Below are positions 21,607 to 25,094 of a stretch of 30,728 nt of DNA, piece after piece. Position numbers and translations under genes: made by a program. Within the stretch, counting starts at the first letter, position 1. The number at the start of each line of letters is the position of its first letter. The stretch is from a virus (taxonomy: Duplodnaviria > Heunggongvirae > Uroviricota > Caudoviricetes > Peduoviridae). The notes beneath the pieces are model-generated. The model had not been told where the DNA came from, ran no database searches, and was given only the letters and a program-made list of their open reading frames with translations. The DNA lies in the IMG/VR virus record IMGVR_UViG_638275546_000001. One strand, given 5' to 3'.

Positions 21607-22769
21607 TGCTGGATACGCTGACATTTGATGCAGGCAGTACGCTGACGCCGGATTACATGCTGATGCTCGACAGCAGGGATATTACCGGCAATATCAGCGA
21701 TCGACTGATGAGCATGACCCTGACGGATAACCGGGGCTTTGAGGCTGACCAGCTTGATATTGAACTGAACGATGCCGACGGGCAGGTCGGGCTGCCGGTT
21801 CGTGGCGCTGTCCTGACGGTGTATATCGGCTGGAAAGGTTTTGCCCTGGTATGCAAAGGGAAATTTACCGTTGATGAGGTTGAACACCGGGGCGCACCGG
21901 ATGTGGTCACCATCCGCGCCCGGAGTGCAGATTTTCGCGGGACGCTCAATTCCCGCCGTGAAGGCTCCTGGCATGACACCACGCTCGGTGCGATTGTTGA
22001 GGCGATAGCCTCCCGTAACAGGCTGGAAGCCAGTGTCGCTCCGTCACTGGCCGGAATTAAAATCCCGCACATCGACCAGTCGCAGGAGTCTGATGCGAAA
22101 TTCCTGACCCGTCTTGCAGAACGCAACGGCGGTGAGGTGTCGGTAAAAATGGGAAAACTGTTGTTTCTCAAAGCGGGGCAGGGGGTGACGGCCAGCGGTA
22201 AAAAAAACCCGCAGGTCACCATAACCCGCAGCGACGGCGACCGCCATCATTTTGCGATTGCTGACCGTGGAGCCTATACCGGCGTAACGGCAAAGTGGTT
22301 ACACACCAAAGACCCGAAGCCACAAAAGCAGAAGGTAAAACTGAAACGCAAAAAGAAAGAGAAACACCTGCGCGCACTGGAGCACCCGAAAGCGAAACCA
22401 GTCACGCAGAAGAAAGCGCCAAAAGTACCGGAAGCGCGCGAAGGTGAATACATGGCTGGTGAGGCTGACAACGTTTTTGCCCTGACCACGATATATGCCA
22501 CGAAAGCGCAGGCCATGCGCGCCGCTCAGGCGAAGTGGGATAAACTGCAACGGGGCGTTGCGGAGTTCTCCATCAGCCTTGCCACTGGTCGTGCTGATAT
22601 TTACACGGAAACACCGGTCAGAGTGTCAGGCTTTAAGCGCGTCATAGACGAGCAGGACTGGACAATCACTAAGGTGACACATTTTCTGAATAATAGTGGC
22701 TTCACGACGTCCTTAGAGCTTGAGGTCAGGCTTTCTGATGTGGAGTACGAAACAGAAGATGATGATTAA
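21606..22769 (+). CDS. D: Tail protein D (late control D family)
   Basis: 387-aa ORF; P2 gpD-like. Confidence 0.9.
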   Translation: MLDTLTFDAGSTLTPDYMLMLDSRDITGNISDRLMSMTLTDNRGFEADQLDIELNDADGQVGLPVRGAVLTVYIGWKGFALVCKGKFTVDEVEHRGAPDVVTIRARSADFRGTLNSRREGSWHDTTLGAIVEAIASRNRLEASVAPSLAGIKIPHIDQSQESDAKFLTRLAERNGGEVSVKMGKLLFLKAGQGVTASGKKNPQVTITRSDGDRHHFAIADRGAYTGVTAKWLHTKDPKPQKQKVKLKRKKKEKHLRALEHPKAKPVTQKKAPKVPEAREGEYMAGEADNVFALTTIYATKAQAMRAAQAKWDKLQRGVAEFSISLATGRADIYTETPVRVSGFKRVIDEQDWTITKVTHFLNNSGFTTSLELEVRLSDVEYETEDDD

Positions 22770-22849
22770 TGTTTTGTTTTATCTGTTTGTTTTATAAGGA
22801 TAAATTAAATAAAATGGCACCATTAACAAAACCGGAAGAGGTGCTCGCG

Positions 22850-23068
22850 ATGTTTCATTGTCCTTTATGCCAGCATGCCGCACATGCGCGTACAAGCCGC
22901 TATATCACTGACACGACAAAAGAGCGTTATCACCAGTGCCAGAACGTGAATTGCAGCGCCACGTTCATCACTTATGAGTCGGTACAGAGATACATCGTGA
23001 AGCCGGGAGAAGTCCACGCCGTGGGGCCGCACCCGTTGCCGTCAGGGCAGCAAATTATGTGGATGTGA
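22850..23068 (+). CDS. ogr: Late-gene transcriptional activator Ogr (C4 zinc finger)
   Basis: Start at internal ATG of ORF 22769..23068 (MFHCPLCQHAAHARTSRYITDTTKERYHQCQNVNCSATF..., 72 aa); CxxC...CxxxxC zinc-finger motif; recognised as P2 Ogr-like. Confidence 0.88.
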   Translation: MFHCPLCQHAAHARTSRYITDTTKERYHQCQNVNCSATFITYESVQRYIVKPGEVHAVGPHPLPSGQQIMWM

Positions 23069-23078
23069 TCACAAAAAT

Positions 23079-23105
23079 AGCCCCTCAGTCGAGGGGCTTA
23101 TTTAT
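23079..23105 (+). terminator. Rho-independent terminator after ogr
   Basis: AGCCCCTC-agtc-GAGGGGCT stem-loop followed by TATTTAT, about 10 nt after the ogr stop. Confidence 0.7.
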
Positions 23106-23341
23106 GGTCGATGTGGACGCTATGTGGACAGTGGTTGACATAAATCCATTTATATCATCAGGTTAGGTGCTTTTTTGTGACACCATCCCTGTCTTCCCCC
23201 ACATGATGTGGGGGTTTTTTTTATCAATTACTTACATGCAATCAAAAGTAAAAACAGTCACTTATCGAAAGCTGTAAGGGTTTGGAGTGGTTTCAAAATT
23301 TCTTGAGTGTGGACACTATGTGGACACTCAGAGGGGGAAAT
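23106..23341. other. attP: Phage attachment region (attP) with arm-type integrase binding repeats and an IHF-like site
   Basis: Position between ogr and int as in P2; four direct copies of TGTGGAC arranged as two pairs (23112..23129 and 23308..23327); IHF-consensus-like TATCAATTACTTA at 23221..23233; the core crossover sequence could not be identified by eye. Confidence 0.6.
23196..23222 (+). terminator. Strong GC stem-loop with T8 tract inside the attP region
   Basis: CCCCCACA-tga-TGTGGGGG followed by TTTTTTTT. Confidence 0.6.
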
Positions 23342-24322
23342 TTATAACGTCACTCCGCCTTTTAGTGGATTCAGAGCGACGGCATTTTGCAGGTAGTCAG
23401 GCGCAAGGTGCGCATAGGCCATCGTCTGCTGAATGCTCGCATGTCCCAGAATCTGTTGCAGTGCGATTATATTGCCCCCGTTCATCATGAAATGGCTTGC
23501 GAATGTATGCCGCAGGATGTGGGTTGCCTGATTGGGTGGTATATCAGGTTTCACTCTGCGTAAAATCCCGCAAAATTTCTCATAATCAACTTTGAATAAT
23601 TTGGCGCTTGCCTCCTCTTTAACTTTTTTCTCCAGTTCCTCAGAAATCGGCACGGTTCGCTTTTTACCGTTTTTGGTTTTCAGGAAGGTAACCCTGCAAT
23701 TTGTAATCTGTGCTGGTTTTAGCGTGGCAACTTCCGTCCATCTTCCTCCAGTGCTCAGACATAAAAGCGCGACAAGTAAGTCATCACCAGCCAAAACATT
23801 TAACAGTTTTTCGATTTCTGCTTTTTCCAGGAACGTCATTTCAGGGTTGGCCTCCGCCAGTGGCGGCAGTCCGTGAATTGGGTGTTGCCCGGAAAATTCA
23901 TCCAATTGAATTAATTTTGTGAACATGCCGGATAATCGGTACATGTCACGGTTTATCGTTGCGGCACTGATACCATCACGTAGTCGTATGGAACGATAAT
24001 CCATCAAAGCCCTTTTGCTCATCCGGCTCACTGGTATATCACCTATGCCGCTGATGGTTTTGAGTAGATGATTAAACTCTTTTGTTCCATGCTCGTGGTT
24101 TTGCCCGTGATATTTCCACCAGATGTCCAGCAACTCACTCAAAGTTCGGCGGTCTGCTCGCTGGCCTCCCCATTCTTTCTGACTGGCATTGGCGATTGTG
24201 TATCGCTCAAATGCTAGTGCTTCAGCTTTTCTTTCGAATTTCCTGCGGATGCGTTTTCCGTCGCGACCGCGAGGTCTAATGTCCACTTCATAGCGACCAT
24301 CATCGAGCTTCTTAATTGCCAT
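23342..24322 (-). CDS. int: Tyrosine integrase
   Basis: Start at internal ATG (MAIKKLDDGRYEVDIRPRG..., 326 aa) preceded by GGAGGG; C-terminal catalytic region with HxxR and terminal Tyr context (ILGHASIQQTMAYAHL); P2 Int-like. Confidence 0.9.
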   Translation of the reverse strand: MAIKKLDDGRYEVDIRPRGRDGKRIRRKFERKAEALAFERYTIANASQKEWGGQRADRRTLSELLDIWWKYHGQNHEHGTKEFNHLLKTISGIGDIPVSRMSKRALMDYRSIRLRDGISAATINRDMYRLSGMFTKLIQLDEFSGQHPIHGLPPLAEANPEMTFLEKAEIEKLLNVLAGDDLLVALLCLSTGGRWTEVATLKPAQITNCRVTFLKTKNGKKRTVPISEELEKKVKEEASAKLFKVDYEKFCGILRRVKPDIPPNQATHILRHTFASHFMMNGGNIIALQQILGHASIQQTMAYAHLAPDYLQNAVALNPLKGGVTL

Positions 24323-24391
24323 AAGAAAGCCCTCCGGCGCTGTATTCACCATCTTGGTAGCAAATGGTGAAAATGTAATCTTTATATAGAG

Positions 24392-24685
24392 TTAGCCAAT
24401 CCTTTTCGCGGAGTGGTTGGACTCTGTTGACTCTGGCCCAATGTGCGCGAGAGCCGGTGCGATTTGTCCTGCGTCCGGCGCGGTTTTATCTGTCATAAGC
24501 CATAGAGCATATTTTTGGAATGTGGGATGCATAGTGATTTTTAGCAAAGCTGTGCCACCGGGTTCAAAGTTTCCTCCTTCATATTTTTTAAGTGTGCTTA
24601 GCGGTAACTCTATGATTTCACAGAATTTTGATTGGCTTAGCCCTTCAGCCTCACGCAAGGCCTTAATCTTTTCGCTTAATTTCAT
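24392..24685 (-). CDS. C: Immunity repressor C
   Basis: 97-aa ORF with N-terminal HTH-like segment and C-terminal ...GQIAPALAH... segment resembling P2 C; divergent from cox across the switch region. Confidence 0.8.
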   Translation of the reverse strand: MKLSEKIKALREAEGLSQSKFCEIIELPLSTLKKYEGGNFEPGGTALLKITMHPTFQKYALWLMTDKTAPDAGQIAPALAHIGPESTESNHSAKRIG

Positions 24686-24821
24686 TTGACATGGTGACTA
24701 TATAGGGACTAAACTCCCTCAAAACTGGAACCTATATAGGTTACATTGATTTGAGAATAAACCAGCGTCTAAACGGTTTTGAGTGGTTTAGAAAGGGCTG
24801 GATCCTATGAGGGTACCATAT
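24686..24821. promoter_or_regulatory. Lysis/lysogeny switch region (candidate Pe/Pc promoters and operators)
   Basis: Intergenic between divergent C and cox; two TATATA-centred palindromes, tgaCTATATAGgga (24695..24708) and perfect 14-bp AACCTATATAGGTT (24729..24742), centres about 33 bp apart; TTGACA at 24686..24691. Confidence 0.6.
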
Positions 24822-25094
24822 ATGGACGCTGAAAATTATGTGATTCAGTATCCGCTTGATGCGGTTCATGTGGATAAATTTGCTGATTTATTAGGGAAGC
24901 CAAAGACAGCCGTCAGTGAAATGGTGAAGGCAAATAAATTACCAATTATTGAATTGCGTGATCCTTGCAAACTGAAGGCTCGTGCCGGTGAAAAATGGGT
25001 TTTCATTCCTGAGTTTAATCGCGCTGTACGTGAGGCGTTTTATAACCGACCGGTTGAACAGCGTGATGCATGGCTTTTGTGGATGGGGTTGTGA
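24822..25094 (+). CDS. cox: Cox-like excisionase / lytic-switch DNA-binding protein
   Basis: Start at second ATG of ORF 24807..25094 (GAGGG about 8 nt upstream), 90 aa; position and size as P2 Cox, with similar C-terminal ...RDAWLLWMGL. Confidence 0.75.
   Translation: MDAENYVIQYPLDAVHVDKFADLLGKPKTAVSEMVKANKLPIIELRDPCKLKARAGEKWVFIPEFNRAVREAFYNRPVEQRDAWLLWMGL

Follow-up and report, generated by a model that had tools for sequence, protein, structure and literature searches.

The attachment sites of phages WΦ (AY135739, AJ245959) and P2 (AF063097) are the closest described systems to the locus analysed here. In P2, the elements follow one another in the order ogr terminator, Int P arm, IHF site, core, Cox sites, Int P' arm and int. 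Arm-type sites of P2-type integrases have the consensus tgTGGaCa (PMC3448106). WΦ is listed at cpxP-fieF in the genome paper of E. coli W (PMC3032704), prophages of O157 and of Salmonella Infantis have been published at the same place, and the Int and attP of WΦ are already in use as an E. coli integration tool in the pIT5 plasmids (PMC12765450). Elements that integrate at the 3' end of tRNA or tmRNA genes (phage 186, HP1, Fels-2 and P4-type elements) carry a copy of the 3' part of the RNA gene, which is rebuilt at one junction, and this general pattern of 3'-end restoration has been described for the 186-type phages (PMC3448106).

We analysed a 30,728-nucleotide stretch of DNA from a P2-like phage (the window), in which the 273-bp interval at positions 23069-23341 (query positions 1-273 below) is flanked by ogr and int (Table 1). 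An earlier note, made from the letters of the sequence, had proposed that this interval has the architecture of an attP. Our analysis supports the proposal, and we give a probability of about 0.9 to reading it as the attP of a P2-like phage of the WΦ type, a heterobivalent site of a tyrosine integrase. For the comparison with prophage-host junctions in lysogens that the note had suggested, the interval was searched against 5,426 complete E. coli genomes. The full 273 bp was not found at any single place in these genomes. Lysogens carry either query 1-157, which is the ogr side (attR), or query 111-273, which is the int side (attL), and prophage-free genomes carry query 111-157 alone, as an empty site. 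The common core is thereby placed at 23179-23225. At least query 111-157 is held by 4,488 of the 5,426 genomes, some of them having up to four matching places, and an attR-type junction is present in 790, so that about 15% have a prophage at cpxP-fieF. Empty sites, attL and attR are all seen for the chromosomal copy of the 47-bp core. The core is also present in six Peduoviridae genera in GenBank and in at least eight P-arm lineages in IMG/VR.

Table 1. Features of the attP interval and its surroundings (positions are those of the window).
Feature	Position	Strand	Basis or description
ogr, late-gene activator, last gene before attP	22853..23068	+	Pfam Ogr_Delta, E 1e-21
Terminator of ogr and the F operon	23079..23098	both strands	8 pairs, 6 G-C; terminator score on both strands
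Arm-type Int sites of the P arm, a TGTGGAC direct-repeat pair with 11-bp spacing	23112..23129	+	align to the P2 Int P arm
Putative P-arm IHF site by P2 homology	23139..23172	+	aligns to P2 'protein_bind IHF' 24324-24357
attP/attB 47-bp identity (common core), GACACCATCCCTGTCTTCCCCCACATGATGTGGGGGTTTTTTTTATC	23179..23225	+	junction mapping, query 111-157
Interval containing the strand-exchange (overlap) region	23179..23205		segregation of the loop SNP, junction reads
CpxQ/cpxP intrinsic terminator carried by the phage	23196..23222	+	8-bp stem, 3-nt loop, T8
Perfect IHF consensus TATCAATTACTTA at the core/P' boundary	23222..23234	+	candidate second, H'-like IHF site
Candidate Cox operator AAGGGTTTGGAGTGGTTTCAAAA, GGTTT repeated at 10-bp phase	23276..23298	+	match to own Pe-Pc region
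Hairpin enclosing the P' arm sites, just 3' of int	23304..23330	-	-10.2 kcal/mol, z -3.3
Arm-type Int sites of the P' arm, a TGTGGAC(A) direct-repeat pair with 11-bp spacing	23308..23325	+	homologous to the P2 Int P' arm
int, tyrosine integrase, 326 aa from the MAIKKLDD start	23342..24322	-	Pfam Int_N, E 5e-28; Phage_integrase, E 1e-19
Second occurrence of the Cox-operator-like element, in the early control region directly before cox	24772..24794	+	sequence match
cox, Pc repressor and excision directionality factor	24807..25094	+	Pfam Phage_Cox, E 8e-23

The genes around the interval place the phage close to WΦ. A 99-residue open reading frame starting at 22769 is ogr with a spurious N-terminal extension of 27 codons (22769-22852); its true start was placed at the ATG at 22853 because the Ogr proteins of P2 and WΦ are both 72 residues long, and 71 of 72 residues are identical to each of them. 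The int frame is open for 336 residues from 24352, and its stop codon occupies 23342-23344. Int is 98.5% identical to the Int of WΦ and 52% identical to that of P2. The corresponding values for Cox are 81% and 45%, and the C repressor is 56% identical to that of WΦ. The stretch from ogr through attP and int to C is 99.3% identical to Peduovirus P24B2 and 98-99% identical to several Peduovirus genomes from E. coli, Yersinia and Salmonella, and the WΦ match to this phage runs from ogr through int. Taken together, the Int, Cox and C identities to WΦ indicate a phage that combines the integration specificity of WΦ with a different immunity, being heteroimmune to WΦ.

The attP itself agrees with that of WΦ in the 47-bp core, which is identical, in both TGTGGAC pairs and their spacing, in the P arm, in the IHF-like motifs and in the chromosomal site. 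Divergence between the two is confined to about 65 bp of the P' arm (23239-23304). The match to P2, in contrast, is confined to query 11-89, which takes in the ogr terminator and the P arm and reaches into the IHF region. The first three features of the P2 site align with ours. The 27-bp core of P2, AAAAAATAAGCCCGTGTAAGGGAGATT, which is the 3' end of cyaR, is absent between the arms of the interval. The expectation that the integration site differs from locI of P2 is thus borne out, the core being that of WΦ. The two phages differ in the host site (cyaR in P2 and cpxQ here) and in the length of the identity (27 bp and 47 bp), in addition to the divergence of their integrases. The stem-loop just after ogr has the same sequence as the 'rho-independent terminator for ogr transcript and F operon' of the AF063097 record; its folding energy is -16.7 kcal/mol on the plus strand and -16.3 kcal/mol on the minus strand (z -4.0 and -4.7).

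The TGTGGAC heptamer is found at 23112-23118, 23123-23129, 23308-23314 and 23319-23325, always on the plus strand and with a start-to-start spacing of 11 bp within each pair, which is within one or two bases of where the pairs had been reported before. No enrichment of the heptamer is seen over the whole window (6 copies against 4.1 expected), but four of the six copies lie in the two phased pairs within 214 bp. The exact arrangement TGTGGACNNNNTGTGGAC has an expectation of about 2e-4 in 30.7 kb on both strands, so that the pairing is not a product of chance. Both pairs match the tgTGGaCa consensus, and the core thus has two direct arm repeats to its left and two to its right. When 20 P-arm lineages were compared without gaps, the columns of the P-arm repeats proved to be conserved in register with the edge of the core. 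The P'-arm repeats are identical in WΦ and are conserved in register across lineages.

The P' pair is located within the inverted repeat GAGTGT...ACACTC. This repeat is real and extends to TGAGTGT (23304-23310) and ACACTCA (23324-23330); however, it does not abut the int stop codon as had been described, but ends 11 bases before it. The P' arm of P2 is part of the int reading frame, but that of the present phage is found beyond the int stop codon, on its 3' side, within a hairpin. Over 12 distinct lineages of the TGTGGAC type (alignment A3), 90.9% of the cells of the palindrome are paired, against 21-57% in slid controls. Five pairs show compensatory changes, one of them occurring as UA, AU, CG and GC, and the covariation score was reached by none of 500 shuffles. 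A conserved T-rich tail, or short T run, follows the palindrome on the minus strand (T43 and T44 of A3). The likeliest role of the palindrome is that of an int 3' hairpin or weak terminator, an assignment which we hold tentatively, at somewhat less than even odds. It may act as a terminator or stabiliser of int which has the Int arm sites in its loop.

Two places in the interval resemble IHF sites. The first is the P-arm block to which the IHF site of P2 aligns. Within it, a consensus core, TATCATCAGGTTA, is present at 23153-23165 with one mismatch, preceded by the upstream element ATAAATCCATTTAT (AAATCC-TTTAT) that is homologous to the P-arm IHF element of P2. Across 20 lineages the motif AtAAATCCtTTT.TttCA.t..gtTa is retained, always equally far from the core, and in the one lineage with TGTAGAC arms that was checked (SEN5) the block has three mismatches to the consensus. 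The second place, at the core/P' boundary, is the only perfect match to WATCAANNNNTTR in the whole window, for which 1.1 matches are expected window-wide and about 0.01 per 273 bp. It belongs to the block ATCAAtnACTTA, the best-conserved part of the P' arm outside the arm repeats in 14 lineages that are less than 80% identical, including those with TGTAGAC-type arms, and this block is absent from attB. P2, unlike this phage, has no IHF consensus at the equivalent place, which holds Cox sites; it has been reported and annotated with a single IHF site, from which a second one at 23222-23234 would depart.

The IHF-like site of the earlier note was the second of these, and a perfect consensus is indeed present there to within one or two bases, but the site footprinted in P2 aligns instead to about 23139-23172. 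It could be argued that only the boundary site is functional and that the P arm has none, given that it is the sole perfect match in 30.7 kb and the most conserved block of the P' arm in 14 lineages. However, we consider this unlikely: the footprinted and annotated site of P2 lies between the P arm and the core, it aligns together with its AAATCC-TTTAT element to 23139-23172 of this phage, a block that keeps its register in 20 P-arm lineages, and the two sites are mutually compatible. In phage lambda, the attP has IHF sites on both sides of the core. With the P-arm site taken as the homologue of the P2 site, a second, P'-side IHF site at 23222-23234 is plausible from the consensus match and its conservation, with the odds evenly balanced.

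The part of the P' arm that differs from WΦ contains a candidate Cox operator. Over its central 15-mer, the element AAGGGTTTGGAGTGGTTTC at 23276-23298 agrees with the phage's own Pe-Pc region at 14 of 15 positions, for which the chance is about 1e-3. WΦ has ACCTATAAGGGACTGGA in this place of the P' arm, which matches the Pe-Pc region of WΦ itself at 16 of 17 positions, where the element adjoins the annotated Pc promoter (AJ245959; no att annotation is present in this record). The presumed operator therefore reads GGTTTGGAGTGGTTT in this phage and AAGGGACTGGAAGGGCT in WΦ. The P2 record annotates Cox binding in the corresponding interval, and the known cox boxes of P2, taken as a control, were recovered in the same analysis. 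The P2 cox-box consensus, TTAAA(G/C)NC(A/C) (PMC3936717), is not expected in the present phage because its Cox differs. Since the element co-varies with each phage's own Pe-Pc region, the candidate at 23276-23298, one repeated element per phage, is probably a Cox operator.

The position of strand exchange within the 47 bp can be narrowed by natural variation. The base at 23206, in the loop of the hairpin in the core, is A in the phage and C in K-12-type hosts. None of 400 E. coli genomes has an attL with the host C, each showing a single mismatch to the C-type query. Among the 790 E. coli attR junctions, in contrast, about 146 have the host C (by subtraction; at least 25 are listed at 100% identity), and about 926 further partial matches to the C-type attR query are empty C-type sites. 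In IMG/VR, the host C is present in none of 28 attL and in 4 of 33 E. coli-type attR junctions. Both junctions of the prophage in E. coli M217 were read, with CACATGATGTGG in attL and CACATGCTGTGG in attR. Because attL consists of host DNA on the left and phage DNA on the right and always carries the phage A, strands are exchanged to the left of 23206, within 23179-23205. The clean segregation of the loop allele argues that 23206 is outside the overlap region. The crossover thus lies inside the interval proposed for attP, bracketed by the junctions and the loop SNP.

Further, the left edge of host identity is always at 23179-23181 in the six Peduoviridae genera and in at least eight P-arm lineages, and this constancy suggests that the exchange takes place near 23181, with the overlap region at the left edge of the identity. 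The sequence GACA-N7-TGTC at 23179-23193 is a candidate pair of core-type sites. The overlap region is bracketed only to 27 bp because the left half of the core, 23179-23205, shows no variation among the E. coli and IMG/VR host flanks examined. Variants of the host that were considered as narrower markers all fall in the right half (G4T9 in strain A39; IS200C after the T run in GN02461).

The binding sites of tyrosine recombinases are, as a rule, inverted repeats on either side of an overlap of 6-8 bp. The palindrome CCCCCACAT/ATGTGGGGG (23196-23214) is the strongest inverted repeat in the core, and the earlier note had placed it in the presumptive core region, so that it might be taken for inverted core-type Int sites with the exchange in the loop. 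This is very improbable. An exchange in the loop or to its right would give the opposite or a mixed pattern, but attL always has the phage A (0 of 400 and 0 of 28) and attR has the host C in C-type hosts. Phages of the SEN5 and ESSI2 types also tolerate changes in the hairpin half of the core (G4T9 in SEN5, GGGGGTC in ESSI2_ev239). The loop SNP and the M217 junctions put the crossover to the left of the hairpin, and the placement of the exchange point at the hairpin has to be given up. With the exchange to its left, the hairpin half of the core is supplied by the phage and stands in for the CpxQ 3' end.

CpxQ is an Hfq-dependent small RNA which is cut from the 3' UTR of cpxP. The attB adjoins the 3' end of cpxP and precedes fieF, the host order being cpxP-cpxQ-fieF. 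In strain 504239 the int-proximal junction begins 23 bp past the cpxP stop codon, and in MG1655 the same bases are annotated as the ncRNA cpxQ (b4716, 58 nt), followed by fieF. The 47-bp core corresponds to nucleotides 15-58 of cpxQ together with three further bases (ATC). Two terminator hairpins stand in series on the plus strand, at 23079-23098 and 23196-23214, as had been noticed from the letters. The second, found within one or two bases of its reported position, has 8 pairs, 6 of them G-C, with T8 at 23215-23222 and a folding energy of -16.5 kcal/mol, and together with its T run it corresponds to nucleotides 32-58 of cpxQ (b4716) of MG1655. The guess that this G+C-rich hairpin with its T tract derives from the 3' end of a host gene proved right, since it is the terminator of cpxP and of the CpxQ small RNA. 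In M217, attL holds an intact 58-nt cpxQ with the phage allele in the loop. The 3' end of an RNA gene thus falls within attB, and the phage brings along an equivalent one. That the second hairpin is a back-up phage terminator for ogr and late transcription, with an incidental resemblance to the host, would fit two plus-strand terminators in series after ogr; but it is extremely improbable, because the 47 bp are identical to a fixed locus, cpxQ, in prophage-free E. coli and prophages are split at exactly this sequence. As the CpxQ 3' end carried by the phage, the hairpin could still bring the added benefit of terminating phage transcripts that read through.

As in the integrators into tRNA and tmRNA genes, the exchange here maps to the 5' part of the identity block, and the identity continues to the end of the gene. 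The target, by contrast, is a regulatory RNA derived from a 3' UTR, and no symmetric site like an anticodon loop is evident in it. P2 also targets the 3' end of an Hfq-dependent small RNA, as its 27-bp core is the exact reverse complement of the last 27 nt of cyaR (MG1655, L120 875-901), with the small RNA in the opposite orientation relative to int when compared with this phage. The ogrK remnant of the cryptic prophage PR-X in K-12 starts at the 3' end of cyaR.

Although hybrid junctions with unlike arms exist in IMG/VR contigs and some E. coli genomes have up to four matching places, we can practically dismiss the idea that this is no true attP but a junction of prophage and host (attL or attR) or a hybrid of tandem prophages. 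Both flanks are phage DNA with the same type of arm repeat, their collinear arrangement with ogr and int is exactly that of WΦ, P24B2 and further virions that have been sequenced, and neither of the host flanks, GCCATA on the left and CTCAATTT on the right, is present. The hybrids in question (L020 and L063) are attP-like junctions with TGTGGAC in the P arm and TGTAGAC or TGTAGTC in the P' arm, and are probably junctions of tandem prophages which have two integrase types and are both at cpxQ.

With the interval read as attP, the parts suggest the following working of the site. The N-terminal domain of Int would bind the TGTGGAC pairs in the P arm (23112-23129) and the P' arm (23308-23325), and its core-binding and catalytic domains would work within 23179-23205, where the 47-bp identity begins on the left. 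The P arm would be bent by IHF at about 23139-23172, and a further bend, in the P' arm, is possible at 23222-23234. Cox would bind the P' arm around 23276-23298, where it would block integration and drive excision. The attB is the 3' part of cpxQ. Upon exchange at the left edge, attL would be phage-derived from the exchange point to the end of the terminator, and the 47-bp identity would mostly be a spare 3' end which keeps cpxP/CpxQ and the terminator intact in lysogens, by the same logic as in elements that insert into tRNA genes.

Lysogens would then be expected to make a chimeric CpxQ, of which at least nucleotides 42-58, and possibly nucleotides 15-58, are phage-derived, with a changed loop base in C-type hosts. 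In the lysogen, int is transcribed toward cpxQ and cpxP on the opposite strand, and a promoter-less copy of CpxQ nucleotides 15-58 is left upstream of fieF at attR. For the CpxQ fragment borne by attP, no promoter was predicted in 22700-24685, the only promoter-like site being Pe at 24686. It is conceivable, but quite improbable, that integration tunes the Cpx envelope-stress response through the level, processing or Hfq loading of CpxQ. If true, this would be lysogenic conversion acting through a host small RNA.

The kind of site, the core, the arms and the chromosomal locus have already been published, and this is a correct but ordinary attP of the P2/WΦ family which leaves the understanding of how such sites work unchanged. 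For this phage, the attP, the core, the arm sites and the integration locus (cpxQ, between cpxP and fieF) are now fixed in the annotation. Three points are apparently unstated in the literature searched, in which we found no paper linking CpxQ to a prophage or to WΦ-type integration. One is the location of the WΦ-type attB within the sequence of the CpxQ small RNA; this follows directly from the current annotation. CpxQ was described years after the WΦ-type site had been mapped. Another is that natural variation confines the crossover to the leftmost 27 bp of the 47-bp core. The third is that P2, at cyaR, and WΦ-type phages, at cpxQ, exploit an Hfq-dependent small RNA in the same way, with the two RNAs oppositely oriented. 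For users of the WΦ Int tool, this means that insertions land in the gene of a stress-response small RNA.

Rfam holds no family that matches cpxQ on its own strand. However, its family RF02628, Hrs1 (Hfq-regulated sRNA 1), which gave the sole match of note, matches the reverse complement of cpxQ, at 23156-23222 of the window (minus strand, 31.8 bits) and in MG1655 (L003 1816-1888, minus strand, 41.4 bits, E 7e-7), both scores being below the gathering score of 56.4. The Hrs1 model starts with A7 followed by a G+C stem, as a terminator does when it is read on the opposite strand, which gives the family the look of a CpxQ homologue that has been filed on the wrong strand.

A few variants of the locus were also observed. 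A terminator with GGGG and T9 in place of GGGGG and T8 (23210-23222) is found in some host attB sites, such as that of strain A39; some junctions of either type, attL and attR, have it too, as does phage SEN5. It represents a recurrent change at the boundary between stem and T run. In E. coli GN02461 (L016), IS200C is inserted directly after the CpxQ T run and the last bases of the attB identity are removed. The cpxQ-integrated prophage of E. coli M217 (L005 1456-3611) has a 642-nt cargo ORF and IS150 between ogr and the P arm, and its ogr terminator is replaced by a different one. IS66 and IS21 interrupt the same prophage, which is probably defective.
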